From a virus (lineage: Duplodnaviria; Caudoviricetes), in IMG/VR virus record IMGVR_UViG_2824233761_000002, positions 7,054-71,053 of that record: a stretch of DNA of 64,000 nt; one strand, written 5' to 3'. Both the position numbers and the translations under genes were made by a program. Of the stretch, positions 6,431 through 63,625 are shown piece by piece (positions within the stretch are counted from its first letter, which is position 1; the number at the start of each line of letters is the position of its first letter). The notes under the pieces are model-generated. The model was not told where the DNA came from. It worked only from the letters and a program-made list of their open reading frames with translations, and did no database searches.

Positions 6431-8331
6431 GCAGCCAGACGTTCCACACCCTCGACGTGCTCCGCCTCGAGGTCGAGCAGCCACCCGCCACCGGCCTGCG
6501 GAACCGGATCAAGAACCCCGACGGCGTCGGCGGCGGCTGGGGCTGGATCACCCCCCAGACGAACCAGAACATCGGCGGCCTGGTCGACGGCTCCGGCCCC
6601 TACCTGTCGTTCGCCTCGATGGACACGTTCATGCCCGGGGAGTTCGGGTCCGAGCCCATCCCCGCCCGGCCCGGCCAGTGGGTCAACTGGCGCGCCGAGG
6701 TCCGGTCCACCAACCGCAGCTACCAGATCGGCCTCCAGCACCTCAACGCCGACGGGACCGTCGTCGGTGGGTTCATGCTGCTGGCCTCTACCGCCACCGG
6801 CGTCCGGTCCGGGTCCGCACACCAGATCACCGACCCCACCGTCGTCGCCGTCCGCCTCCGCGCCTACCAGGTCGGCGGAGGCGCGCCGCCCTGGGGCTTC
6901 TCCTGGCGCAAGGCGATGGTCGCGGTCGAGGACACCAACACCGGCATGACCGGCATGGCCTACACCGAGACCCAGTGGGTCAACATCCTCGGCAAGTCCC
7001 ACAGCGTCCAGATCGAGCGGTCAGAGCTCAACCTCGGCATCCTCGCCGCGGTCGTCTACGACGCCGACCTCGACCCCGCCCAGGCCGGCGTCCACCTCGG
7101 CCAGGGCATCCGCGCCCACGCCCTCGTCGCAGGCTCCTGGGAGCCCCTGCACGTCGGGTCGCTGACCAACGCCCGCGCCGAGTACAACCCCCTGGCCACC
7201 GACGTCGACAAGCGCGCCAAGATCACCCTCACCGCCACCGACGCCGCCGGCACCCTGGGCCGGGTCCCGCGCCCCGACGGCGTGGCCACCATCCCCGACC
7301 TCATCGGCGTCCTGGAGGGCGCCGGAGTCCCGTGGAACATCAACGGCTCCACCAGCCAGCGGTTCCCCGGACCCACCGTCTCGACCAACCCCGACGCCCG
7401 CGCGATCGACCAGGTCGCGATCACCCGCGACACCGTCCACGGCTACGCCTGGATCTCCCGGGCCGGGGTGCTCACCGCCTGGGACGCCGACCAGCTCCCC
7501 ACCGGCGTGGCCGCGGTCCTCGACGAGGACGACATGACCGCCCTCTCGATCGACTACGACACCGACCGGTGTATCAACATCGTCACGGTCAAGTACCTCC
7601 GGCCGGGCGGCGAGGAGGTCACCTACGGCCCCTACGTCGACCAGGCCAGCCGCGAGCAGTGGGGCGAGCACACCGCCGAGTTCACCGTCCACGGCATCCC
7701 CGAGACCGAAGCCAACATGGCCGCGTTCGCCAACGCCGTGTTCGCCGCCAACGCCACACCCCAGCGGCGCGTCAACACCGTCACCCTCCCGGTCCGCACC
7801 CCGGCCGAGCTGCCCAAGACGCTGCTCGACCTCTACGACCTCGTCACCGTCCAGAACGCCGACCTCGACCTCGACCAGTCGATGCGGATCACCGGCGTGC
7901 GGCACCAGATCGCCACCGACCGATGGTCGGTCACCCTCGAGTTCGCCGCCCAGGGCGGGGTCGCACCGCCCCAGCAGACCCCATCAGCGGGCCCGACGGT
8001 GGCTGCCGGAGCGGGTGAGTGGGTCGCCGCGGCTCCGACGAACGGGTGGACCGGCGCGGTCTACTACAACGTCGCGGACGGCATGTGCACGGCGATCCTC
8101 GACCTGTTCAAGACGGCGTGGGGTGCCGAGGTCATGGCCCAGCTCCCACCAGGCGCCATCCCCAAACCGGCGTTGCCCGCGGGCATGTACTTCTACGGGC
8201 TGTCGCGGGACACCGGCGCGCAGGCGCCGTTCTGGGTGGGCGTCGGCGGTGACATCGGCTGTGTCTTCGGGTCCGCCGTCACTGGTGGCGGCGGGATCAC
8301 CGGAACCATCACCTACCCCGTGCGCCGATAA
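6427..8331 (+). CDS. Minor tail protein
   Basis: 634 aa directly after TMP; C-terminal GTITYPV tail-fibre-like end. Confidence 0.75.
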   Translation: MSSQTFHTLDVLRLEVEQPPATGLRNRIKNPDGVGGGWGWITPQTNQNIGGLVDGSGPYLSFASMDTFMPGEFGSEPIPARPGQWVNWRAEVRSTNRSYQIGLQHLNADGTVVGGFMLLASTATGVRSGSAHQITDPTVVAVRLRAYQVGGGAPPWGFSWRKAMVAVEDTNTGMTGMAYTETQWVNILGKSHSVQIERSELNLGILAAVVYDADLDPAQAGVHLGQGIRAHALVAGSWEPLHVGSLTNARAEYNPLATDVDKRAKITLTATDAAGTLGRVPRPDGVATIPDLIGVLEGAGVPWNINGSTSQRFPGPTVSTNPDARAIDQVAITRDTVHGYAWISRAGVLTAWDADQLPTGVAAVLDEDDMTALSIDYDTDRCINIVTVKYLRPGGEEVTYGPYVDQASREQWGEHTAEFTVHGIPETEANMAAFANAVFAANATPQRRVNTVTLPVRTPAELPKTLLDLYDLVTVQNADLDLDQSMRITGVRHQIATDRWSVTLEFAAQGGVAPPQQTPSAGPTVAAGAGEWVAAAPTNGWTGAVYYNVADGMCTAILDLFKTAWGAEVMAQLPPGAIPKPALPAGMYFYGLSRDTGAQAPFWVGVGGDIGCVFGSAVTGGGGITGTITYPVRR

Positions 8332-13495: not shown

Positions 13496-14995
13496 CTACC
13501 GCTCCCAGACGCCCTTCACCACAACGTCCGCGCGCGGCCGCCCCGTCCACACCCGCACCGGCCGGATCAAGTCACGCAGCACCTCCCGCCGGTGCTCCAC
13601 CGGCCGGTCATCCCACGACCCCAGCAGATCCTGCGCGATCCCCACCGGATCCGACGGCCCCCGCCGCGCCGACACCGCAGCGTCCTCATGCGCGGCCTGC
13701 AACTGATCCCGCTTCTCCACCAGGCCCGCCACCGTCTTGGCGTAGACCTCCGGCGGCAGCGGCGCCGACGCGTTCGACAGGGCCAGCTGCTGCAGCTCGG
13801 CATCGACGCGCGCGACAGCCCGGGCGAGTCGGTCCGCCTCCGACCTCGAGGCGGTGACGCGGGCCTCGGCAGCCAGGGCGACGTTGCGCCGCTCGTCGAC
13901 CTCGCCGGCGAGGTCGACGAGCCAGGCGTAGACCTTGTCCTCGACGTGCGACGCCATCACGTACCCGCCCTTGCACACGGCTGGGCCGATCTCCTTGCCG
14001 TTCTGGCACCGGTACTTGGGGACCCGATAGGCGCCGAACTGGCCGGCGACCATCGATCCTCCGCACCGACCGCAGCGGATCAACCCGGAGAGCAGGTACT
14101 GCGACCGGATCGTCCGGGCCGGCCTCGCAGCCCTGAGTCGCCGGGCGTCGAGGTATGCCTGCCACAGCTCTTGGTCGATGACGGGCTCGTGGACGCCAGG
14201 ATGCAGGGTCGGCTCGATCTTCCGGGCCCGGTCGCCGCCGGCGAGGAAGGACCCGGTCGCGAAGCCGGAGTCGAGGACGCGGCGCAGCGTACGGTCCGAC
14301 CACGGCCCGGGGTCCTTCTTCCCGTACCCACCGACGGTCAGGTGGCCATGAGCGTTGAGCCACCGCACCAGCTGGTAGACGGACTCGCCGGCGACGTAGC
14401 GGCGGTACATGTCCGCGAGGACGGGGGCGGTGACCGGATTAGGAACGTGGAGCTTCTTCTCGCGGTCGTAGACGTAGCCGAACCGATCTTTCCCGGTCGG
14501 CGGCCGGCCGGCGCGAACCCGTGAAGCGTGGACCTCCTTCCACACCTCCCCGATGCGCTCGGCCTCGAACGCCTGGAGCTCGGCGAGCATCCCGCGGGCG
14601 AGCCGGCCGCTCGAGGTGGTGGTGTCGAACTGCTCAGTGGCGGACTCGAGCCGGCCGCCGGCCTCTTCGACGCGGTCGATCGCGACGGCCCACCGGAGCC
14701 GGTGGCGTGCCGCGCGGGAGTACTTCCAGACGACGAGGACGTCGTACTCCCCCGCTTCGATGGCGGCGACGGCCTGGTCGAGGCGGGGCCACCAGGCGGA
14801 GCGGGCGCGGGATCCGGACTCGTCGATGCCTTCGAGCCAGCCGGCGATCTCGTAGCCGCGGGTGGCGGCATAGTCGATGATCGCGGTGCGCTGGACCTCC
14901 GGGGAGATCATCCCTTCACGTTCCTGGGAGACCCGCACGAGCCCGAGCGCCCTCGGTGGGGCTTCGGGGACGACGCGCAGCTGACGCCCGGTCAT
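13496..14995 (-). CDS. Large serine recombinase (integrase)
   Basis: LVRVSQ catalytic Ser; VWKYSRAAR; recombinase domain; LSGLIRCGRCG zinc ribbon; coiled coil. Confidence 0.95.
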   Translation of the reverse strand: MTGRQLRVVPEAPPRALGLVRVSQEREGMISPEVQRTAIIDYAATRGYEIAGWLEGIDESGSRARSAWWPRLDQAVAAIEAGEYDVLVVWKYSRAARHRLRWAVAIDRVEEAGGRLESATEQFDTTTSSGRLARGMLAELQAFEAERIGEVWKEVHASRVRAGRPPTGKDRFGYVYDREKKLHVPNPVTAPVLADMYRRYVAGESVYQLVRWLNAHGHLTVGGYGKKDPGPWSDRTLRRVLDSGFATGSFLAGGDRARKIEPTLHPGVHEPVIDQELWQAYLDARRLRAARPARTIRSQYLLSGLIRCGRCGGSMVAGQFGAYRVPKYRCQNGKEIGPAVCKGGYVMASHVEDKVYAWLVDLAGEVDERRNVALAAEARVTASRSEADRLARAVARVDAELQQLALSNASAPLPPEVYAKTVAGLVEKRDQLQAAHEDAAVSARRGPSDPVGIAQDLLGSWDDRPVEHRREVLRDLIRPVRVWTGRPRADVVVKGVWER

Positions 14996-15053
14996 TGCAG
15001 CGACGACGACCCGGCTACGGCGGATCGGTCCGCCACCCAACCCCGCGACCGAC

Positions 15054-15275
15054 TCATGCCGTCTCGTCCTCGTCGGCGGACTCGAACAGCCGATGGAGGT
15101 ACTCCTCGTGGTTGGCATACCGCATGCCGACGACCACGCCCTGCCCGATGATCCCGATGCCCCCGACGATGCTCGCGAGCACCAAGATGACGGTGCCGAT
15201 CGCTTGACCGTCCTCGGCTGCTGCGATGAGCCCACCGAGGATAGTCAGACCCACGCCAACGTAGATGTACGTCAT
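15054..15275 (-). CDS. Small two-TM membrane protein
   Basis: MTYIYVGVGLTILGGLIAA...VILVLASIVGGIGIIG; typical int-adjacent membrane gene. Confidence 0.6.
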   Translation of the reverse strand: MTYIYVGVGLTILGGLIAAAEDGQAIGTVILVLASIVGGIGIIGQGVVVGMRYANHEEYLHRLFESADEDETA

Positions 15276-24227: not shown

Positions 24228-24739
24228 ACATCCTCGCCATCGACCCCGGCAACACCGAGTCCGCCTACGCCCTCATCCACGCCACCACCCACCGACCCAT
24301 CCACGCCGCGAAGCTCCCCAACGAGCAGCTCCGCATCGGACTCCAACGCAACGCACTCGGCCAGGCCGCCGAGCACGTCGCGATCGAGATGATCGCCTCC
24401 TACGGCATGTCCGTCGGCGCCGACGTCTTCGAGACCTGCGTCTGGATCGGCCGGTTCGCCGAGTCCAGCCGACTCCGCACCGGCCACGAGCCCGACCTCG
24501 TGAAGCGCCACCCGATCAAGCTCCACCACTGCCACTCCTCGAAGGCCAAGGACTCCAACATCATCCAGGCCCTCGTCGACCGGTTCGCGCCTGGCGAGCC
24601 CAACCGCGGGAAGGGCACCAAGGCCAACCCGGGCTGGTTCCACGGCTTCGCCGCCGACATGTGGCAGGCCTACGCCCTCGCCGTCTACGTCGCCGACCAG
24701 CTCGAGGCGAGCCCAGCCGGCCATGCAGCGGGGTTCTGA
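24224..24739 (+). CDS. RuvC-like Holliday junction resolvase
   Basis: ILAIDPG, VAIEM, SKAKDSNI, ADMWQAYALA. Confidence 0.8.
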   Translation: MNILAIDPGNTESAYALIHATTHRPIHAAKLPNEQLRIGLQRNALGQAAEHVAIEMIASYGMSVGADVFETCVWIGRFAESSRLRTGHEPDLVKRHPIKLHHCHSSKAKDSNIIQALVDRFAPGEPNRGKGTKANPGWFHGFAADMWQAYALAVYVADQLEASPAGHAAGF

Positions 24740-26373
24740 TGGTCACCAACCTCGGCAACGCCACCGCCTACGTCGCCGGTACCGGCCACCGACCCCTCCC
24801 CAAGGCCGACGAGCACGGCTACCGCCGCGCCCACCAGCCACGCGCGAAGAAGCCCAGCGGCCTCGACTGGGACGCCCTCACCCCCCACTGCAAGACATGC
24901 GGGCAGAAGTCCGGCCAGCTCGACAACAACGACACCTGCCCCACCTGCCGCGGCGACGCCCCGAAGACCACGCCGAAGACCGCCCGCCGACACGGCCCCT
25001 ACCAGCAGCTCCCCGACGACGAGATCGAACGCCGCTTCACCGCACCCGCCTCCGCACCCGACAACACCCGCCTCGGCGCCGACCTCGCCGACCTCGAAGC
25101 CACCGACCCGAAGGTCACCGCAGCCGCCGCAGCACTCGATGACGCCACCGACCGCATCACCCGCCCCGACGACCACGTCCACGCCGATGCTCTCCGCGTC
25201 GACGACACCCCAGAACTGCCCACGGAGGGTAAGCAGGGCCAGCCCACGACGCGGATTAGCGCACCGCGCGTAGCGACCAGCGCGGATCCAGCCGAGGCGG
25301 CTGGCGCTGGTTCCTCCACCGCCGAGATGAAGGACCCGGCGGTCGCCCAGGAGACGCGCCCTGCGGCGACCGCCGGCCCGACCAACACCAGCCCGGCCTA
25401 CACCCCCGAGGGCAACCTCGACGCCCAGATCCAGCACGCCGCACGCGTCCTACGCGACACCGCCACCCACCACCACCCCGCCATCAAGCTGCTCCGCCTC
25501 AACGCAATCGCCGCGATCGAGGCCCTCCACCTGTTCGTCGAGATGAACCACCCACAGACCCCCGCGCCGGCGCCCGCCCTCCCCCGTGACGGCGCCGGCG
25601 CGGGCCCCGACCGGCCGGCCGCCGACCCGGAAGGGGAAGCCGGACGGCGGCCGGCCGCCCGCCGCGCCCCACGCTCGCGCCGATCGAGCGCTGTCACCGT
25701 CGACGAGCAAGCCATCATCCGCGAGTACAAGGCCGGCGACACCGCGCCCACGATCGCCCGCCGCCACGGCATCGGCCCGAAGCGGGTCCGCGACATCCTC
25801 GACCGCCACGGCATCGCACGCCGCGACGACCGAGCCACCCACTCAGGCGGCCGCAACAAGCTCCACCTCACCGACCAGCACCGCGAAACCATCGTGCGCC
25901 GCTACGTCGTCGACCAGGCCGCCATCGGCAAGATCTCCCGCGACACCGGTCACGGACGCCACACCATCACGGCCATCCTCAAGGACGCCGGCGTCACCAT
26001 CCGCCCAGCCGCGCACCTCGCCCGAGCAACCGTCCTCACCGACACCCAGCGCGCCGAGATCGTCACCGCGTACATCGACGGCGGCGAGTCCAGCCACGTC
26101 CTCGGCACCCGGTACCGGATCCGCGCCGAGACCGTGCGCCAGATCGTCGTCGACGCCGGCTACCAGGTCCGGCCCAGAGGCGGCGAACCGGGCACCGACC
26201 GCCTGACGGCGCTCGGCGTGACCGCGGCCCAGGTCAAGGCATGGGCACTCGCCCAGGGGCTCATCGACCAGATCCGCACTGGTCGCGTCCCGGGCCGGCT
26301 CATCGACGCCTACGAGCAAGCACACCCCACCACCACCGCAACACCCGACCAGTCAGGAGACACCGCAGCATGA
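24739..26373 (+). CDS. Multi-HTH protein with C-terminal Lsr2-like DNA-binding domain
   Basis: N-terminal CxxC..CxxC; three HTH repeats; VTAAQVKAWALAQGLIDQIRTGRVPGRLIDAYEQAH resembles the Lsr2 C-terminal domain. Confidence 0.7.
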   Translation: MVTNLGNATAYVAGTGHRPLPKADEHGYRRAHQPRAKKPSGLDWDALTPHCKTCGQKSGQLDNNDTCPTCRGDAPKTTPKTARRHGPYQQLPDDEIERRFTAPASAPDNTRLGADLADLEATDPKVTAAAAALDDATDRITRPDDHVHADALRVDDTPELPTEGKQGQPTTRISAPRVATSADPAEAAGAGSSTAEMKDPAVAQETRPAATAGPTNTSPAYTPEGNLDAQIQHAARVLRDTATHHHPAIKLLRLNAIAAIEALHLFVEMNHPQTPAPAPALPRDGAGAGPDRPAADPEGEAGRRPAARRAPRSRRSSAVTVDEQAIIREYKAGDTAPTIARRHGIGPKRVRDILDRHGIARRDDRATHSGGRNKLHLTDQHRETIVRRYVVDQAAIGKISRDTGHGRHTITAILKDAGVTIRPAAHLARATVLTDTQRAEIVTAYIDGGESSHVLGTRYRIRAETVRQIVVDAGYQVRPRGGEPGTDRLTALGVTAAQVKAWALAQGLIDQIRTGRVPGRLIDAYEQAHPTTTATPDQSGDTAA

Positions 26374-36226: not shown

Positions 36227-36297
36227 CAAGCGTGAACCTCTTGTTGTCTCATTCCCTCAAGAACCCGTATGCCCAGACACTGGCGCAGCGGGTTCTT
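36223..36297 (+). promoter_or_regulatory. Putative late promoter with downstream hairpin
   Basis: TTGACA at ~36224-36229; AAGAACCCG...CGGGTTCTT stem at 36259-36297, just before terL. Confidence 0.45.
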
Positions 36298-36337
36298 GTG
36301 CGTCAGGAGTAGATCACGCGAGGTAGGTGACCACCTC

Positions 36338-37939
36338 GTGTCCACCGCCGCCCGTGACGACCTCTGGATCGACTTCCTCGAAGACGGCCTCGTCGGCCTC
36401 CGCGGCCGCGACCCCGACCCCGCCGACACCGGCGCCCCGGTCAAGACCTGGACCACGCCCGGCGAGCTCGCCCGCGACCTCGACCCCACCACCCGCCAGA
36501 CCCCCGCACTCGACGCCATCGACTCCGCTCTGGTGGACGTCGACGCAGGCCGATGCGACCGGCTGATCATCACGATGCCCCCGCAGGAGGGGAAGACCAC
36601 CCGCGTCAAGGCCGGCGTGCTGTGGATGATGACCCGCAACAAGCGCCGCCGCGTCGTCGCCGTCTCCTACGGCAAGGACCTCGCGATCGAGTTCGGCCGC
36701 GACGTCCGGTCCTGGATCACCACCTCGACCGGCGTCGACGGCGCCGCGAACCTCGGGATCCGCATCGCACGCGACAACGGGTCCGTCTCGAACTGGACCC
36801 TCGAAGGGCACCGCGGCGGCCTCCGCAGCGTCGGCATCGGCGGCGGCATCACCGGCCGGCCCGCCGACGTGATGGTCATCGACGACCCGATCAAGAACCG
36901 CGAGGAAGCGGACTCCGAGGTCTACCGCGCGAAGGTCCAGCGGTACTGGACCAGCACGCTGTCCACCCGCCTGGCCCCCGGCGCGCCGGTGATCGTGATC
37001 CTCACCCGCTGGCACGAGGAAGACCTCGCCGGGTGGCTGCTGAAGCGGCCCGACGGGCACCGGTGGCGGGTCGTGAACATCCCGGCCCAGGCCGACCACG
37101 ACCCGAACGCCGGCGAGACCGACATCCTGGGGCGCGAGCCGGGCGAGTACATGGTCTCGGCGCGGATCGACGAGCGCACCGGACAGCCCCGCACCGCGAA
37201 GGACTGGGAGCAGATCAAGGTCCAGGCCGGGTCGGCGGACTGGGAGTCGCTGTACCAGGGCAACCCGTCCCCGCCGTCGGGCAACATCGTGCACCGCGAC
37301 TGGTGGAAGTACTACGCGAGCCCGTTGTGGATCGTCCGCGATGACGGTGCGCACATCGTGACCGAGTACGACGTGATGCTGATGTCGTGGGATATGGCGT
37401 TCAAGGACACCGACGCCTCCGACTACGTCGTCGGGCAGGTCTGGATGCGCCGGGGCGCCCGGGCGTACCTGCTCGACCAGGTCCGCGGCCGGATGTCGTT
37501 CGTCGAGACCCGGCGCCGGTTCAAGTCGTTCGCCGCGAAGTGGCCCCAGGCGATCGCGAAGCTGGTCGAGGACAAGGCCAACGGCACGGCGGTCATCAAC
37601 AGCCTCGAGATGACGGTCGGCGGGATCATCCCCGAGGACCCCGGGAACAAGGGGAAGTCGGCGCGGCTGCAGGCGGTCTCGCCGTTCATCGAGGCCGGGA
37701 ACGTGTGGCTCCCGGATCCGGCGCTGCTCAACCCCTCGACCGGTGAGCCGTGGGCGCCGTGGGTGGACGGGTTCGTCGAGGAGCACGCCGCGTTCCCGTC
37801 CGGGTCGAACGATGACCAGGTCGACGCGGACTCGCAGGCGCTGAACCGGCTGCTGCTGCAGCCGCTGCTAACCGGCGAGACGTACGACGAGGACGACCTC
37901 GACGACGAGCTGGCGGACTACGCGATCAGCCACTGGTGA
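36338..37939 (+). CDS. terL: Terminase large subunit
   Basis: MPPQEGKT Walker A, VIDDPIK Walker B, ILTRWHEEDLAG, SWDMA, VEDKANG, NDDQVDA. Confidence 0.95.
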   Translation: MSTAARDDLWIDFLEDGLVGLRGRDPDPADTGAPVKTWTTPGELARDLDPTTRQTPALDAIDSALVDVDAGRCDRLIITMPPQEGKTTRVKAGVLWMMTRNKRRRVVAVSYGKDLAIEFGRDVRSWITTSTGVDGAANLGIRIARDNGSVSNWTLEGHRGGLRSVGIGGGITGRPADVMVIDDPIKNREEADSEVYRAKVQRYWTSTLSTRLAPGAPVIVILTRWHEEDLAGWLLKRPDGHRWRVVNIPAQADHDPNAGETDILGREPGEYMVSARIDERTGQPRTAKDWEQIKVQAGSADWESLYQGNPSPPSGNIVHRDWWKYYASPLWIVRDDGAHIVTEYDVMLMSWDMAFKDTDASDYVVGQVWMRRGARAYLLDQVRGRMSFVETRRRFKSFAAKWPQAIAKLVEDKANGTAVINSLEMTVGGIIPEDPGNKGKSARLQAVSPFIEAGNVWLPDPALLNPSTGEPWAPWVDGFVEEHAAFPSGSNDDQVDADSQALNRLLLQPLLTGETYDEDDLDDELADYAISHW

Positions 37940-48440: not shown

Positions 48441-48934
48441 CCCGCCGGATCGTCGCGACCGCCCGCGGCCTGGGTGTCGCGCCGACGGTGTTCGCGGGCC
48501 TGCGGCAGGTGACGACGACGTACCTGTACGAGGACCCGGAGCACCCCGACCGGGCCACGGGGTCGTTCGAGTCGGTGGCGTACACGCCGGAGGACCAGGC
48601 GCTGCTGCTGGGTCTGGCGGCGTACGAGCACCAGCAGCAGCACGGGGGCATGGGTTCGTGCTCGTGTGGGTGGCCGATCGAGGTGGCGTGGCACTCGGAG
48701 ATGGACGGCTGGTTCGGGACGCTCGACGTCGTTTGTCACGTGTGCACGGCGCGTGCTGGGAAGACGGTCACGCACACGATCGTGCGTGACACCCGGCCGG
48801 CTGGGCATCCGGCGTTGCCGCCGTTCGTGCTCGGTGTGACCACCACCGAAGCCTGACTTCTCCCCGTCCCCGTCTCCGTTCTGGCCCCGCCGTTGTGCGG
48901 GGCCCTTCGTCGTTCATGAGAGGCGGTGGGCCCG

Positions 48935-51900
48935 ATGGGTGCTGAAGCACGCTCTGTTGTCGTCAGGCTCACCGCCGAGACCGCGCAGTACATCGCGCAG
49001 ATGCAGGCCTCGGGCCGCATGACGGTCAACGCGATGAAGCCGGCCGAGGCCGCGGTCATGCGGCAGTCCGCGGCGATCGACGACCTCGGCGGGAAGGCCG
49101 GAAAGCTCGGTCTCGCCGCAGCGGCTGGCGTCGCGGCGATGGGCAAGGCCGCGATGGACTGGGAGTCCCAGTGGGCCGGCGTCGAGAAGACCGTCGACGG
49201 CACGGCATCGCAGCTCAACGGGCTCGAGGACGACCTCCGCGGGCTCGCCCGCACGATGCCCGCGACGCACCAGGAGATCGCCGCCACCGCCGAGGCCGCC
49301 GGCCAGCTCGGCGTCGCCACCGAGGACATCACCGACTTCACCGAGGTCATGGTGAAGATGGGCGAGACGACGAACCTGACCTCCGACGAGGCGGCCACGT
49401 CGATCGCGCAGTTCATGAACGTGATGCAGACCGCGGCCGGTGACGTCGACGAGATCGGCAACACGATCGTCGACCTCGGCAACAAGGGCGCGTCGACCGA
49501 GGCCCAGATCGTGAACATGGCGCAGCGGGTCTCCGGCGCCGGCACGACCATCGGCGCGACCGAGCAGGACGTCCTAGGCCTGTCGGCGGCGATGGCGAAC
49601 CTCGGTATCCAGTCGGAGCTTGGCGGCGGGGCGATCCAGCGCGTGCTTCTGGGCATCAACACGCAGGTCGCCTCGTCCGGGGACAAGCTCGAGCGGTACG
49701 CCGAGGTCTCGGGGATGTCGGCCGAGGCGTTCGCGCAGGCGTGGCGTACGTCGCCGGTGGAGGCGTTCGATCAGCTGGTTCAGGGGCTCGGTCGGATCCA
49801 GGCCGAGGGTGGCGACGTCGCCAGTGTCCTGGACTCGATGGGCATCAAGGGGACCCAGAACCTGCAGGTCATGCTACGGCTCGCCGGGTCTGGGGACATG
49901 CTCACTCGGTCCCTGAACCAGGCGAACGATGCGTGGGACCAGAACTCGGCCCTCACGGAGGAGTTCGCCAAGCGGCTGGGCACCACGGCCGCTGAGGTCC
50001 AGATCGCGTGGAACAACATCAAGGACGCCGGGATCGAGGGTGGCCAGGTCCTCCTCCCGATCATCTCCGAGATCGCAGCACACGTTGCCGACATGGGGGC
50101 AGCGTTCGGCGAACTTCCGGACCCCGTCAAAGACATCACCACCGCGGGTCTCGCGCTCACCGCGGTGCTCGGCGGGGGCCTGTGGTTCGGCGCGAAGGTC
50201 ATCGGGGGCATCACGTCGACCAGAGCGTCTCTGGCGGCGCTGCGGCCCGAGATCGCCCGAGTCGGAACCGACCTCGCGACCCGCTCCGGCGTCCGACAGT
50301 TCACCAGCGACCTGGCCATCATGGCGACCACCTCGCGGACCGCCGGCGCCACGAGCGCGCGCGAGCTCGAGCGGACCGCGGCCGCCTCGCAGCGACTCCG
50401 GGGCCAGCTGGGCACCGCGGCGCTGCGCGGCGGGGCGCTCCTCGCGGGCCTCACCCTCGCGACAACCGACCTCGCCGACGGCATGGGTCTGGCCAACACC
50501 GCGTCGTACGCCCTGATGGGCAGCATCGCCGGCCCCTGGGGTGCCGCGATCGGCGGTGGCATCGGCCTCATGTCCGACTTCCACGCCGAGTCGCGCTCCG
50601 CGAGCAAGGCCATCGACGGCTTCAACGACAGCCTCGACGACACCGACGTCGCCAAGATGCTCGCCGGGTTCCAGGCGCTCCAGTCGAAGACGACCGACCT
50701 GAACGCGGACCTCGAGGACACCCACTTCATCCTCAGCCGAGGATTCCTTGACGGCATCTCCGACACCTGGTCCGGGATCGTCGACGTGTTCGGCGACGGC
50801 GCGACCGAGCTGAACCAGGCCAGCGGCGAGGCGACCGACCAGCTGGTCAACCTCACCGGCGTCCTCCAGGGCGTCGCCCAGGCGAACGGGGACTTCATCG
50901 CCTCGGCCTCCAACGGGCTGCAGAACCTCCCCTACGGTGACCTCGAGGACCTCGCCCGCGTCGGGGAGAAGGTCCAGCCGATCCTCGACGACCTCGGGTA
51001 CTCCCTCGACGACCTGATGTCGATGAAGCCCGGATCGCCAGAGGCGGTCAAGGCGATCCAGGAGATCACCGACGCGCTCGCGCACGCCGACAGCCCGGCC
51101 GGTCGAGTCGAGGCGCTCGGGGACGCGATCGATGGTCTCGGGAACGACATGGAGACCACGGCCGACAAGGCCGAAGGCCTCGCCGACGCGCTCGACGCGC
51201 TGCTCGACCCCGGGATGAACCTCTCGGAGGCCACCGACCAGTGGACGACCGCGCTGAGGCACCTGTCCGACGACCTCGACAAGAACAACCGGACGCTCCG
51301 GGGGAACAGCGACGCGGCGATCAAGAACCGCGACGCGGTCCGCGAGCGGGTCGGGCAGATCAAGGACCTGCTCGTCGCCGAGGCTGACGCCGGCGCGTCG
51401 TCGGCGCGGCTGTCGAAGGTGCTGGGCAGTCAGCGGAAGGCGCTGATCGACGCCGGGGCGGCCGCAGGCATCAGTCGCGACGAGATGCGGGCATACCTCA
51501 AGGAGCTGGGGCTCACTCCGAAGCTGATCCGTACGGTCATCGACGCCGACACGCGGCAGGCGTTGAGCGCGATGGACCAGGTCAAGCGGATGCTCGACCA
51601 GCTCGACGGGAAGCGCGCCCAGACCGTCGTCGAGACCGTCTACCTCCAGACGAACAAGCCCAAGGCGACCCCCGGCAGCCCCGATGGGCTCAACAGGGCC
51701 AGCGGTGGCCCGATCTACGGGCCCGGGACGAAGACCTCGGACTCGATCCCGGTGATGGCCTCCAACGGCGAGTTCATGATGTCGGCCGCGGCGGTCGACC
51801 ACTACGGCCTCGACACCATGTTCGCGATGAACGCCCGTCACCTCGCATCCGGCGGCGATGTCGCCGGACGCGTCGCCCCGCAGGGAACCCTGGACGACCG

Positions 51901-52852
51901 ACTCGCGATCGCGCAGGCCATGCAGTCGATCCGTGACCTCACCCGCGACCTCAACGAGCGGGTGCAGAAGGGCAAGCACAAGGGCGACCTGGTCACCACC
52001 GGTATCGACCGGGAACTCCTCGAGCTCCAGCTGAAGGCTGCCCGAAAGGAGCTTGAGAACGCCGAGAGCCGTGAGAAGCGGGAGAAGCGGGAGGCGGCCC
52101 GCGAGGCCCGCCGGGAGGCGCGGGAGGCCAAGCAGGCCATCAGGGACGCGAAGGCGGGGCTGGGTATCGCTGCCGGCCTGTCGACGCCGTCCGCAGGTGA
52201 GGCCGCCGGCATGGCGACGTGGGACGCGATCGCGGGGTTCCGCGACCAGATCCGCGACGCCGGTGGGAAGGTCGGAGCGAACTTCGACATGCTCGCGCTC
52301 AAGAGCGCGATCCTGACTGCCCGCTACACCACGAACGCGGAGAAGATCGACGACCTCAACAACCAGATCGACTCGATCCGGACCGCCGCCGCCGGCTCGT
52401 TCATGCACGACCCATTCCAGGGCGGCCTGGCTGACTTTGACCTTCAGGTCGCGGCCGACACCAACGACACCAACGCCATGACCGAGGCGCTCGCCGCGGC
52501 GGCCGCGAAGGGCCTCGACGGGCCGCTGGCAGCGGCGCTGGCGTCGAGCGGGAACCTGCTGCTGGCGCAGGCGTTCGCCGGCATGGACGCGGCCGGGATC
52601 GAGCGGCGGGAGCGGGCGTACGCGGCGCGCGATGTGGCGGGGAAGGCATTGGGGGACATGGCGGTGCAGGTGTCGGGGCTCGCGACGCAGGTCAGCAGTC
52701 TCGTTGCGGAGAACGCCAAGCTCATCGGGCAGATCAACCAGATGGAGGGCAAGATCAAGAACGGGGTGTACGCCGGCGCGTACGACGGGACTGCGCAGCG
52801 AGAGCGGGACAGGGACAAGAAGCTCAGGGGCCGTACAGGAGCTGGCCGATGA
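48935..52852 (+). CDS. Tape measure protein
   Basis: ~1305 aa; WESQWAGVEKTVDG TMP domain; GGPIYGPGTKTSDSIPVMASNGEF motif. Confidence 0.95.
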   Translation: MGAEARSVVVRLTAETAQYIAQMQASGRMTVNAMKPAEAAVMRQSAAIDDLGGKAGKLGLAAAAGVAAMGKAAMDWESQWAGVEKTVDGTASQLNGLEDDLRGLARTMPATHQEIAATAEAAGQLGVATEDITDFTEVMVKMGETTNLTSDEAATSIAQFMNVMQTAAGDVDEIGNTIVDLGNKGASTEAQIVNMAQRVSGAGTTIGATEQDVLGLSAAMANLGIQSELGGGAIQRVLLGINTQVASSGDKLERYAEVSGMSAEAFAQAWRTSPVEAFDQLVQGLGRIQAEGGDVASVLDSMGIKGTQNLQVMLRLAGSGDMLTRSLNQANDAWDQNSALTEEFAKRLGTTAAEVQIAWNNIKDAGIEGGQVLLPIISEIAAHVADMGAAFGELPDPVKDITTAGLALTAVLGGGLWFGAKVIGGITSTRASLAALRPEIARVGTDLATRSGVRQFTSDLAIMATTSRTAGATSARELERTAAASQRLRGQLGTAALRGGALLAGLTLATTDLADGMGLANTASYALMGSIAGPWGAAIGGGIGLMSDFHAESRSASKAIDGFNDSLDDTDVAKMLAGFQALQSKTTDLNADLEDTHFILSRGFLDGISDTWSGIVDVFGDGATELNQASGEATDQLVNLTGVLQGVAQANGDFIASASNGLQNLPYGDLEDLARVGEKVQPILDDLGYSLDDLMSMKPGSPEAVKAIQEITDALAHADSPAGRVEALGDAIDGLGNDMETTADKAEGLADALDALLDPGMNLSEATDQWTTALRHLSDDLDKNNRTLRGNSDAAIKNRDAVRERVGQIKDLLVAEADAGASSARLSKVLGSQRKALIDAGAAAGISRDEMRAYLKELGLTPKLIRTVIDADTRQALSAMDQVKRMLDQLDGKRAQTVVETVYLQTNKPKATPGSPDGLNRASGGPIYGPGTKTSDSIPVMASNGEFMMSAAAVDHYGLDTMFAMNARHLASGGDVAGRVAPQGTLDDRLAIAQAMQSIRDLTRDLNERVQKGKHKGDLVTTGIDRELLELQLKAARKELENAESREKREKREAAREARREAREAKQAIRDAKAGLGIAAGLSTPSAGEAAGMATWDAIAGFRDQIRDAGGKVGANFDMLALKSAILTARYTTNAEKIDDLNNQIDSIRTAAAGSFMHDPFQGGLADFDLQVAADTNDTNAMTEALAAAAAKGLDGPLAAALASSGNLLLAQAFAGMDAAGIERRERAYAARDVAGKALGDMAVQVSGLATQVSSLVAENAKLIGQINQMEGKIKNGVYAGAYDGTAQRERDRDKKLRGRTGAGR

Positions 52853-60873: not shown

Positions 60874-60952
60874 CGTCGCCCCACAGCGATCCGGGCCAAA
60901 CCGACCCGGCGAAACCCAACCCAGAACTTGTCACCCGCGTGAGCAACAACCC

Positions 60953-60986
60953 CGCCCCGCCACCCAACCCGGGTGGCGGGGCGGCT
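60953..60986. terminator. Hairpin downstream of the multi-HTH gene
   Basis: CCGCCCCGCCACC / GGTGGCGGGGCGG 13-bp stem. Confidence 0.6.
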
Positions 60987-60989
60987 TCG

Positions 60990-62294
60990 TCATGCCCGGC
61001 CGAGGTCGGCGCGCCGCCGACGCACGGTCTGCGCTGAAACCCCGATCGCTCGCCCAGCCGCCGCGGCGTTCAGGTGCGTCGTCTGCTGGATCCCGTCATC
61101 GAGATCCCGGTACCCGGCCTGTCGGGCGGCCTCGTCGAGCTTCGCGACCCGCGCCGCGACCATCCGCCGCACCGCCCGCTCCTGCCCGGGGCGCCGGTTC
61201 GCACGGACGTGCTGCTCGTTGCGGCTGCCCGCGGACGCGTCGATCCCCGGGACGGCCATCTCCCGCAGCCGCTCCGGGCCCTGCCACGGCTTGAGGTGCC
61301 CCAGCTCTCCGGCCGCGTGGCGCTCCCGGCCGATCTCCTGCGACCGCAGCCGGGTCACATCGGCCGCGAGAGCGGCCGTCGCCGGCAGGCCGTGCGCCGC
61401 CCGGTACTCCGCGGCCGTGACGCCGTGGGCCCGGCTCAGGTGTGTCCCCAGGTGCCGGAACCGGCGACCGTCCCCGCACTCCAGGCACGGGATCAGCCCG
61501 TCGCCGTCCGAGACCGTCGACCCGGCCCCGATCCGCGTCGACCTCGCCTCGACGACGCCGGCCGCGGCACGCAGCTCGTCGAGGACCCACAGGTAGACCC
61601 GGCCGCGGCCGTTGCCGGCCGGCCGGTGCGCGACCGGCGTGGGCCACCGCTCGGGGTGTCGATTCATCAGCGTCGCCAGCGACGAGACCGAGTAGCCGAG
61701 CTCGGCCGCCGCCTCGGCACGGGTCACCAGCACCGGCCGCCCACCGGCAACGATCTGGGAGACCCGCGACCGGCTGATCCCGAACTCGCTGGCGATCTCG
61801 CCCCGAGGGACTCCCGCTTGTGCCCGGACGATCACCCACGCAGCCCGCTCGAGGCTCGCCCGCCGCGGCCGCACGGTCGGGGCAGCGGGCGCCGCCGCGT
61901 CCTTCCTCCGCGCGCCCCGCACGCCCAGACGCGACCGCAGGTTCCCCACCGCGCGCTCGCTGCGGCCTGGGAGCCGGAGCGCGACCTGCTCGACCGAGAG
62001 CCGCAGATCCCGCACCAGGCGCAGCTCCTCCTCGCTCCACCGCGGCCTCCGGTCCCGCGGCGGCCCCAGCACCTGGGCCGCCGCCGCGAGCAGCTCGGCG
62101 CGGTCGTAGAGGAACGAGGGCTTCTTCGCGCCGTCGACGCGCTGGCGGGTCACCGGCTTGGGCCATCGGTCCGGGTGCGCCCGCATCGAGACCCGGAACG
62201 CGCCATCGGTGTGGCCGGTCAACTCCGCGGCCTGACGCAACGAGACCAGCGCGGGGCGGTCTTGCTTGCTCTCCCCGTCCTCGGCCGCGCTCAC
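60990..62294 (-). CDS. Multi-HTH protein with MucR/Ros zinc finger
   Basis: Two AAEL(T)G...HP(D/E)RWP repeats; WSEEELRLV; RGEIASEFGISRSRVSQI; CLECG...FRHLGTHLSRAHGVTAAEYRAAHGL. Confidence 0.7.
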   Translation of the reverse strand: MSAAEDGESKQDRPALVSLRQAAELTGHTDGAFRVSMRAHPDRWPKPVTRQRVDGAKKPSFLYDRAELLAAAAQVLGPPRDRRPRWSEEELRLVRDLRLSVEQVALRLPGRSERAVGNLRSRLGVRGARRKDAAAPAAPTVRPRRASLERAAWVIVRAQAGVPRGEIASEFGISRSRVSQIVAGGRPVLVTRAEAAAELGYSVSSLATLMNRHPERWPTPVAHRPAGNGRGRVYLWVLDELRAAAGVVEARSTRIGAGSTVSDGDGLIPCLECGDGRRFRHLGTHLSRAHGVTAAEYRAAHGLPATAALAADVTRLRSQEIGRERHAAGELGHLKPWQGPERLREMAVPGIDASAGSRNEQHVRANRRPGQERAVRRMVAARVAKLDEAARQAGYRDLDDGIQQTTHLNAAAAGRAIGVSAQTVRRRRADLGRA

Positions 62295-62688
62295 GACTCG
62301 TCGGCGTACACCACGCGCAGACCGTCGACCCGCTCGACGATCCGGGCCGCGAGCGCGCGCCACCAGCTCGCCGGCCACCCGTCCCGCTCGCCCTCCCGGG
62401 GGATCACCAGCACCGGCTCCGCCACGTCGAGCAGCCGCGTCGCCCAGGCGTCGACCTGCGCGTCCGCCTGGTCGGTCAAGTCCCCGACCTGCTCGGCCAC
62501 GCCGGCCGGGATCCGGCTCGTTCCCGCCTCCCACCGCCGCACGGTGCGCTCGGCGACACCGAGCCGGGCCGCGACGTGCTCCATCGTGAGCCCGAGGTCC
62601 TCCCGCGCGATCCGGAACTCCGCATCGGTCAGGGCCTCGCTCAACGAGCCGAAGCCCTCGCCCGTGACGGGCGAGGGCTCCCGGGTCA
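62291..62688 (-). CDS. Aca2/YdiL (DUF1870)-like HTH protein (start 62688 or 62644)
   Basis: LTDAEFRIAREDLGLTMEHVAARLGVAERTVRRWEAGTSRIPAGV...WPASWWRALAARI. Confidence 0.65.
62653..62679. other. Perfect 13-bp inverted repeat (RNA stem-loop)
   Basis: AGCCCTCGCCCGT-G-ACGGGCGAGGGCT. Confidence 0.8.
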
Positions 62689-62699
62689 CGCTCGGGTGC

Positions 62700-62861
62700 T
62701 CAGGCACCGAACGTCTCGCGGACGATGGCCTCGTCGTCGGCATCCAGGACGGTGTCCGGGGTGAGGGCGGGCAGGTGCCCCAGGAAACCACAGATGGCGT
62801 TCGCGGTGGCACCGGTGTCGTTGCTGTCCAGCTCGGCGGCCAGGTCGGCGATGGTGATCAT
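62700..62861 (-). CDS. 53-aa acidic protein upstream of the aca2-like gene (Acr / anti-defence candidate)
   Basis: RBS AGGGGA; MITIADLAAELDSNDTG...VLDADDEAIVRETFGA. Confidence 0.6.
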   Translation of the reverse strand: MITIADLAAELDSNDTGATANAICGFLGHLPALTPDTVLDADDEAIVRETFGA

Positions 62862-62915
62862 GATCGTTCCCCTACGGGTCTCGGTCTGGGCCTGTGCCCT
62901 GACCTCGTGACACAC

Positions 62916-62944
62916 ACTGTATGTCCTAAAACCGGACACGGGAA
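62916..62944 (-). promoter_or_regulatory. Promoter with palindromic operator in the spacer
   Basis: TTCCCG-N17-TACAGT; the spacer is TGTCC-N7-GGACA. Confidence 0.6.
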
Positions 62945-63002
62945 GGGGAAGGTCTGAAGTCGCCACCTTCGTCTAGACCGCCCCGGACATAGGCTGCGAC
63001 CC

Positions 63003-63164
63003 GTGAAGCTGCGTAGCATGATCCGGCCCAAGACCGACGTCGACGGCGAGCAGAAGCACACGATCGAGGTCGAGGGCAGCTCCTACGACGACTGCGTCGC
63101 GCAGGTCGACGCCCAGACCCCCGACGGCTGGATCAAGCTCTACGTCATGCCACTCGAGCGCTGA
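63003..63164 (+). CDS. 53-aa hypothetical protein, paralog A
   Basis: TAGGCT 7 nt before GTG; MKLRSMIRP...AQVDAQTPDGW. Confidence 0.6.
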   Translation: MKLRSMIRPKTDVDGEQKHTIEVEGSSYDDCVAQVDAQTPDGWIKLYVMPLER

Positions 63165-63212: not shown

Positions 63213-63422
63213 ATGCCCGACCGTCCACCAGACGACACCACCGTCTGGCTCGACGCCACCACCACCGGCCTCGTGCTCGGCTGGACACCCCAGTACATCC
63301 GGCGCCTCGCCGCCCACGACCGACTCCCCGCCGTCCGCCACGGCCGCTCCTGGTGGCTCCGCCGCGCCGACGTCGAGCGCTACGCCGCCGCCCGCGCGTT
63401 CACCGCACGCCACCGCGCCTGA
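63213..63422 (+). CDS. Excisionase-like (HTH_17) protein
   Basis: WLDATTTGLVLGWTPQYIRRLAAHDRLPAVRHGRSWWLRRADVE. Confidence 0.75.
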   Translation: MPDRPPDDTTVWLDATTTGLVLGWTPQYIRRLAAHDRLPAVRHGRSWWLRRADVERYAAARAFTARHRA

Positions 63423-63457
63423 TCGGCCGGTCGGCGTACCGCCGTAGGCTGCGCCGC

Positions 63458-63625
63458 GTGAGGCTGCACTCCACGATCCGGCCCGACCCGGACACCGGCG
63501 ACCGCCGCGACATCTACACCGACGCACCCACCTGGGAGCAGGCTACCGCCCAGCTCGACGCCCAGCGGCCCGAGGGCTGGCTCGAGATCCACATCACCGT
63601 CATCCCCGGCGAGGCCACGGACTGA
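63458..63625 (+). CDS. 55-aa hypothetical protein, paralog B
   Basis: TAGGCT 7 nt before GTG; MRLHSTIRP...AQLDAQRPEGW. Confidence 0.6.
   Translation: MRLHSTIRPDPDTGDRRDIYTDAPTWEQATAQLDAQRPEGWLEIHITVIPGEATD

Follow-up and report, generated by a model that had tools for sequence, protein, structure and literature searches.

We describe here a three-gene operon on the minus strand of a 64,000-nucleotide (nt) stretch of DNA (IMG/VR record IMGVR_UViG_2824233761_000002, positions 7,054 to 71,053; hereafter the window), which we interpret as a self-limiting accessory operon of the Aca2 type in a prophage with a serine integrase, whose right end it occupies. The operon encodes an acidic protein of 53 amino acids (aa), here called the cargo, followed by an Aca2-like helix-turn-helix (HTH) protein and a 434-aa MucR/HTH protein, and ends in a terminator (Table 1). 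We consider this interpretation likely, including its proposal that the cargo is a counter-defence or host-takeover factor with a target other than CRISPR-Cas. Presented first is what the analysis shows: the sequence elements of the locus, how they are conserved and covary, how the regulator folds, and that the operon is continuous.

An earlier note on this DNA had read a promoter palindrome, a small acidic open reading frame (ORF) and an HTH gene as an acr-aca2-like operon. All three elements lie on the minus strand exactly where it had placed them, and the proposed architecture is well supported, further by a 5' untranslated region (5'UTR) with two hairpins and by a variable cargo slot in related loci. 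The 5'UTR hairpins, the third gene and the terminator had escaped that note. The start of the HTH gene and the stop of the cargo ORF overlap by 8 nt (GTGCCTGA), and the HTH gene is translationally coupled to the cargo ORF. The GTG of the third gene at 62294 in turn overlaps the HTH stop by 4 nt, as GTGA. The C-terminal 245 residues of the third protein are 57% identical to a MucR-like protein from a sister operon, L108, discussed below. Within the third protein a VTRAEAA..RWP.PV module is internally duplicated, in addition to the MucR/Ros zinc finger; the prophage encodes a second large multi-HTH protein at 24661-26373.

The operator palindrome fills the spacer of the promoter, so that an inverted repeat overlaps the core promoter. 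We aligned 23 non-identical copies of the locus (alignments A3 and A6), the one in the window and 22 others, collected from upstream regions of HTH homologues and by searching viral and metagenome contigs for the leader pattern. At matching positions each of the 22 other loci has a TTGCGC, TTGACG or TTGACA hexamer at -35, a TAGAGT-like one at -10 and, between them, a palindrome. The arms of the palindrome differ among loci but always symmetrically (GTCA/TGAC, GTCC/GGAC, GTCG/CGAC, GCCCG/CGGGC and GTACCGG/CCGGTAC), with both sides changing in seven of eight arm pairs. This is the pattern that the operator of a dimeric repressor would be expected to show, and we infer from it that the palindrome is the binding site of a dimeric Aca2-like protein. 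A strict scan for promoters of the E. coli type found none at the locus, so the promoter is called by comparison with related loci alone. The palindrome taken by itself is unremarkable in the window, with 3 matches at up to one mismatch versus 2.9 expected; its exact sequence occurs only twice in the 5.8-Mb host genome. The promoter and leader motif occurs there exactly once, and a search for further copies of motif or operator, as a regulon would have, was negative.

Between the -10 hexamer and the Shine-Dalgarno (SD) sequence lies a leader of about 48 nt on the minus strand that contains the two hairpins. Upstream regions of the homologous loci are strongly conserved at the nucleotide level and share the leader (T)CACGAGGUCAGGG-loop-CCCAGACCG-RR-ACCC-loop-GGGGA, which stops 5-9 nt ahead of the start codon. 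Compensatory changes are seen in three of the eight pairs of hairpin 1 (GC<->CG, CG<->AU and UA<->GC), together with one G-U pair. The stem of hairpin 2 is near-invariant and its covariation therefore little informative, but its placement over the SD sequence is kept in all loci. Taking the operator palindrome and both hairpins together, 91% of the alignment cells are paired versus 26-54% with slid partners, and no shuffle reached the observed covariation, figures that have to be read with the caveats that A6 was fitted to the model and that the sequences are mutually related. The motif matches no family in Rfam 15.

A leader of this kind has been described for Aca2. The Aca2 protein of Pectobacterium phage ZF40 binds an inverted repeat that overlaps its own promoter (Feussner et al., NAR 2026, PMC13551039) and, in addition to this repeat, two 5'UTR hairpins, thereby blocking the ribosome-binding site (PMC13551039). 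The same article refers to "actino" and "proteo" classes of RNA motifs in aca2 operons (Birkholz et al. 2024) and attributes the "actino-motif" to actinobacterial aca2 operons. Since the architecture in the window fits the description by Feussner et al. point for point and the DNA is of actinobacterial origin, its leader is most probably the published actino-motif.

The regulator contains HTH_3 and HTH_31 domains that score above the Pfam cut-offs. In the alignment of its 31 homologues (A2) GWPASW(W/H)R stands out as a conserved C-terminal motif, and 19 of 27 family members match PF08965 (Aca2_YdiL, DUF1870) at E<=0.01. The best matches of the A2 profile are the Aca2 crystal structures 7vjo, 8w35, 7ezy and 7b5j (E 2e-11 to 6e-10, positions 15-109), so that homology to solved Aca2 proteins extends over both domains; YdiL follows next (5e-4). 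An AlphaFold (AF2) model of the HTH protein has a predicted local distance difference test score (pLDDT) of 91.1 and shows an N-terminal HTH followed by a C-terminal alpha/beta dimerisation domain. Foldseek aligned this model over about 120 columns with 2ox6, 7ezy, 7vjq (TMt 0.76, rmsd 2.9), 7b5j and 1s4k. Its TM score against Aca2 is 0.69-0.76, and SO3848 and YdiL, the sole two-domain matches of Aca2 according to Usher et al. (PMC8434428), are likewise matched across both domains. The family has an invariant arginine (R49 in the 133-aa form) at the place of R30 in the recognition helix of ZF40 Aca2, a residue required for autoregulation (PMC8434428). This profile and model evidence places the HTH protein, if distantly, in the Aca2/YdiL superfamily despite its failing the Pfam cut-off when scored alone, and it is predicted to be an autorepressor. 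The resemblance to Aca2 proposed in the earlier note thus stands at the level of profile and fold, although not by the protein's own PF08965 score, which is given below.

The closest named relatives of the HTH gene are from Aeromicrobium and other actinomycetes. Its family is sporadic, occurring in 6 of 400 genomes of the host's family and in none of 57 other genomes of the host's genus, as is expected of a mobile accessory gene. Two independent contigs that encode the same HTH protein match the window with 100% identity and hence give no dN/dS information. The HTH protein also has a near-full-length match, below threshold, to the VC1465/XafT family of Xer-activation factors in NCBIfam (36.5 bits versus 70). 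We rejected an assignment as Xer-recombination activation factor, judging the similarity to be at superfamily level; the prophage uses a serine integrase. The match suggests that the VC1465/XafT family may itself belong to the Aca2/YdiL superfamily. In one related locus (L082:460-1266) an Aca2-like domain is preceded by about 140 additional N-terminal residues in which CPGCGR zinc-ribbon motifs recur, giving a fusion protein of 268 aa, and its gene is located downstream of the shared promoter and UTR motif.

The cargo ORF shows the G+C pattern of a coding sequence at its three codon positions (0.67/0.48/0.89); the values for the antisense ORF are 0.48/0.66/0.87. Its ATG at 62861 is preceded at a distance of 6 nt by the SD sequence AGGGGA, and the protein contains 10 aspartate and glutamate residues versus a single lysine or arginine. 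Single-sequence AF2 modelling gave a three-helix structure with a best pLDDT of 81.5 and 56-76 for the other models. A word-indexed search of 5.8 billion proteins returned the cargo itself only, no match was obtained by tblastn in 50,697 phage records or in the six-frame translations of 300 genomes from the host's family, and the ESM Atlas yielded unnamed actinobacterial clusters only, at 0.90. Calling the cargo a full orphan would still be too strong, because an exhaustive HMMER search recovered three true, if remote, relatives: P0039 (54 aa, 54% identical), P0033 (118 aa, with 59% identity over its N-terminal 52 residues) and P0035 (189 aa, with 49% identity over its N-terminal 51 residues). 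In an alignment of the cargo with these relatives (A5) 14 residues are invariant, including G and H of the motif (L/C)GH(L/M), which argues that the ORF encodes a conserved small domain.

All three relatives head accessory operons, two of them with Aca2-like regulators. P0039 heads the sister operon L108 behind the same promoter and leader (71.7 bits), and the operator there, TGTCCGG-TTA-CCGGACA, has the TGTCC..GGACA half-sites of the window. Next in L108 come an Aca2-like protein with 40% identity, a solo member of the Cas5d family, a MucR-like protein and a Fic protein. P0035 heads an operon that ends in another Aca2-like protein, and P0033 adjoins a RecG-like helicase; Feussner et al. (PMC13551039) mention that helicases can follow aca2. 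The Cas5d-family gene (L108:748-1413, on a contig from Logan SRR31724280; PF09704, 83 bits) is the only cas gene on this 3.6-kb contig, and the Fic gene lies downstream of it. AcrIB3, a Cas5 homologue, acts as an anti-CRISPR in Listeria phages (Katz et al.), and by analogy the sister operon plausibly carries, in an actinobacterial mobile element, a candidate anti-CRISPR derived from Cas5.

In related loci the slot between leader and HTH gene holds one or two genes for proteins of 53-150 aa, almost all with an isoelectric point (pI) of about 4.1. An all-against-all BLAST comparison divides them into at least eight unrelated, mostly acidic families: the "DIDAI" family (L008, L010, L020, L026, L073, L075 and the second gene of L077), a second family (L012, L068 and L069) and at least six singletons, among them the protein of the window. 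None of the slot cargos has a Pfam family above cut-off. These unrelated cargos precede HTH proteins that are 75-80% identical to each other, which argues against a toxin-antitoxin or other fixed-partner relationship. A variable cargo next to a conserved regulator is the pattern used in guilt-by-association discovery of anti-defence genes. The DIDAI proteins share the motif (E/D)(F/Y)D(I/L/V)D(A/G)(I/L) and a C-terminal FWA.V..H, their profile matches no solved structure in the PDB, and they are a candidate anti-defence family in their own right. A link between the window cargo and this family was unsupported (hhalign probability 0.2); the identities of 29-34% in alignment A1 result from forced alignment. 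HTH homologues with 33-40% identity are also present in mycobacteriophages of clusters E and O, where Typha gp48 (L015) is preceded by the 38-aa gp47 and Dylan gp73 (L017) by the 58-aa acidic, Cys-rich gp74. Both upstream ORFs are tiny, rich in cysteine and zinc-ribbon-like. In Typha the covariance model gave only weak hits.

The mechanism that we propose is inferred as regards DNA and RNA binding, repression and whatever the cargo does. Upon entry or induction the promoter would fire and give a single mRNA for the acidic cargo, the Aca2-like HTH protein and the MucR/HTH protein. A dimer of the HTH protein would then occupy the palindrome in the spacer and turn transcription off, and by analogy with ZF40 Aca2 it may also bind the two 5'UTR hairpins, the second of which contains the SD sequence, and so block translation. 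The cargo in the variable slot would most likely be a counter-defence or host-takeover factor, and in this host its target would be something other than CRISPR-Cas.

Several points weigh against this interpretation. The -35 hexamer of the window copy is weak, and the operator varies among loci but the hairpins do not, which is awkward for a single HTH surface that should read both. Scored alone, the HTH protein reaches 16.4 bits against PF08965 (16.2 in the genome search) versus a cut-off of 23.8, and it does so with its HTH half only. The identity of the leader with the actino-motif is probable only, judged by the published description of that motif. The cargo gave no hit at all in Pfam, PHROG, PADLOC or NCBIfam or by tblastn against phages and shows no similarity to any known anti-CRISPR (Acr) or anti-defence protein, and its model has no structural neighbour in the PDB at E<=0.001 by Foldseek. 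Finally, known acr genes have been found upstream of only 3% of Aca2-like proteins (Shehreen et al., PMC9410906).

The earlier note had taken the cargo for an Acr or another anti-defence factor. Its anti-CRISPR version is weakened by the host: in this 99% complete genome we found no match to Cas1, Cas2 or Cas3-HD, and a k-mer scan found no CRISPR array, so that a CRISPR-Cas system that the prophage would have to tolerate was not detected. Among 100 sampled genomes of the host's genus, only 3 gave a match to Cas1. Because of these results and the small share of Aca2-like genes that follow known acr genes, an anti-CRISPR role in this host is unlikely, and the type I-E, I-G and II-C targets proposed for the cargo have no basis in the host genome. 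The cargo might instead be a genuine anti-CRISPR that inhibits, for example, type I-C or I-E systems in other hosts of the phage lineage. The Aca2 architecture of the operon and the solo Cas5d beside a cargo homologue in L108, given that Cas5-derived Acrs exist, speak for this, but the cargo shows no similarity to any known Acr, and in view of the same host and genus data and of the 3% share we regard it as unlikely too. An anti-defence role of the cargo remains plausible through guilt by association, and our hypothesis for its function accordingly shifts from anti-CRISPR to anti-defence or another early accessory function.

Three further explanations leave CRISPR-Cas aside. Two of the three operon genes encode DNA-binding proteins, the trio of cargo, HTH and MucR-like genes recurs in L108, and in other phages the module adjoins the integrase or immunity region (L010), all of which would suit a phage developmental or host-silencing module in which the HTH and MucR-like proteins regulate prophage or host genes and the cargo is a modulator, such as an anti-repressor or partner. 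However, unrelated cargos precede near-identical HTH proteins, making a specific protein partner unlikely, the motif occurs once in the host genome with no regulon visible, and the members from mycobacteriophage clusters E and O are at non-immunity positions; we consider such a module improbable. The gene order, weak matches of the HTH protein to MqsA, HigA and Xre antitoxin models and the moron-like position in the prophage are reminiscent of a toxin-antitoxin, abortive-infection or superinfection-exclusion module that pairs an upstream effector with an Xre-type antitoxin, as in HigBA or MqsRA. This is very unlikely, as the cargo is a strongly acidic protein of 53 aa without a toxin domain, PADLOC yields no system beyond a generic HTH, the full-length fold neighbours of the regulator are Aca2, YdiL and SO3848 rather than antitoxins, and the cargos vary across loci in which the HTH proteins are conserved. 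The very small number of cargo homologues could also mean that the 53-aa ORF makes no functional protein and serves the HTH gene only as a leader or for coupling. This idea hardly agrees with the coding pattern of the ORF, with 14 residues invariant in three relatives, two of which carry the domain at the N-terminus of longer proteins, with the pLDDT of the single-sequence model, or with the conserved SD sequence and ATG of the motif, which feed the cargo ORF, and we judge it extremely improbable. We retain the Aca2-type accessory operon with a plausible anti-defence cargo as our preferred interpretation.

Table 1. Operon, regulatory and prophage features; positions refer to the 64,000-nt window.
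Feature	Position	Strand	Description
-35 hexamer	62939..62944	(-)	TTCCCG, weak match; sequence and positional conservation in alignments A3 and A6
Operator palindrome	62922..62938	(-)	TGTCCGGTTTTAGGACA, TGTCC-GGTTTTA-GGACA (TGTCC-N7-GGACA); fills the 17-nt promoter spacer
-10 hexamer	62916..62921	(-)	TACAGT; the 22 other loci have TAGAGT, TAGACT or TACACT here
Hairpin 1	62883..62904	(-)	GGUC-A-GGGC-ACAG-GCCC-A-GACC; 4 bp, conserved A-A mismatch, 4 bp; minimum free energy and centroid folds
Hairpin 2	62869..62878	(-)	CCC-loop-GGG; 3' arm is the Shine-Dalgarno sequence AGGGGA (62873-62868)
Cargo gene	62700..62861	(-)	53 aa, candidate anti-defence factor; pI 4.05, net charge -9.4
HTH protein gene	62707 to 62291	(-)	138 aa; GTG 62707, alternative GTG start 62692; Pfam, profile and fold
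Third gene	60990..62294	(-)	434-aa multi-HTH protein with MucR/Ros zinc finger; start GTG
Intrinsic terminator	60952..60984	(-)	15-bp G+C-rich stem and T-rich tail, 6 nt past the third-gene stop
Serine integrase	13496-15235	(-)	prophage gene
Gp3-like recombination directionality factor			prophage gene
DnaB-like helicase			prophage gene
Large terminase	36269-37939		prophage gene
Putative tape-measure gene	48926-52852		1308-aa ORF, assigned from size and position alone

The window corresponds to G000:C1:923573-987572 in the 5.8-Mb genome, with 71% G+C, of an actinobacterium from soil. The prophage spans the window from about 13.5 kb to 64 kb, and beyond about 65 kb host-type genes return (DUF3263, NlpC/P60, a HAD hydrolase and a two-component system). 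At the prophage end far from the integrase, the operon runs convergently to the late operon, in an accessory, moron-like position.

Near this end of the prophage two small genes on the plus strand (62990-63164 and 63446-63625) encode paralogous proteins of 53 and 54 aa (34% identical, E 7e-11) and flank an excisionase-type HTH_17 gene (63213-63422). TAGGCT stands exactly 7 nt ahead of the GTG start in each of them, a spacing that looks like the arrangement of a leaderless mRNA. A third copy with 87% DNA identity is present at G000:C1 around 822.4-822.7 kb (L002), where the layout TAGGCT-N6-GTG is kept. These small paralogues match no family. Elsewhere in the host genome there are several tandem arrays with units of about 70-75 nt (G000:C1:76599-77131, 1296236-1296745, 1517817-1518296 and others), each unit holding an inverted repeat GCGGTGAG..GCAACC...GGTTGC..CTCACCGC. 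They were rejected as CRISPR arrays because the entire unit repeats.

If the preferred interpretation is true, the locus offers an experimentally tractable DNA-plus-RNA switch of the Aca2 type from a high-G+C Gram-positive host. The literature and libraries searched yielded no anti-defence protein characterised from this group of hosts. As a handle for searches, the conserved motif of promoter and UTR has retrieved cargos of at least eight unrelated families as well as the L108 operon with its solo Cas5d. Given the apparent absence of CRISPR-Cas from the host, control of the Aca2 type may serve counter-defence and accessory genes generally, not anti-CRISPRs alone. A bolder proposal, possible but in our view somewhat doubtful, is that the 53-aa "LGHL" protein is the founding member of a new phage counter-defence family directed against non-CRISPR immunity of Nocardioidaceae, and that the actinobacterial Aca2 motif marks at least eight unexplored anti-defence families, including a Cas5d-derived anti-CRISPR.

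Among known systems, HigBA and MqsRA share with the operon a small upstream gene, a downstream Xre-type HTH gene and an autoregulatory palindrome, but the upstream protein of the window is acidic, 53 aa long and not of a toxin fold, and unrelated proteins replace it in related loci. Like AcrIB3, the solo Cas5-family gene of L108 stands apart from any cas locus, within an accessory operon of a mobile element. It belongs, however, to the type I-C family and not to I-B, and is a candidate only; Cas5d is absent from the window operon. YdiL of Salmonella (1S4K) and SO3848 of Shewanella (2OX6) have the Aca2-like two-domain fold and no known acr linked to them. They are chromosomal and non-prophage, and YdiL stands alone, whereas the gene in the window is part of an operon in a prophage and is accompanied by a conserved operator and UTR. 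A close counterpart is acrIF8-aca2, an operon from Pectobacterium phage ZF40, together with the wider Aca2 family (Birkholz 2019, 2024; Feussner 2026). The HTH protein of the window is only about 21-23% identical to ZF40 Aca2 and stays under the PF08965 cut-off, the operator and the hairpins have no sequence relationship to their ZF40 counterparts, the cargo is unrelated to AcrIF8 or AcrIF9, and no CRISPR-Cas genes were detected in the host. Yet both operons place a small cargo first and a two-domain HTH regulator second, have an inverted repeat within the promoter and have two 5'UTR hairpins, the second at the ribosome-binding site. As elsewhere in the Aca2 family, additional genes may follow the regulator, the cargo is variable and the operon resides in a prophage or other mobile element. 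The locus adds an almost orphan cargo to a known and recently published kind of system.

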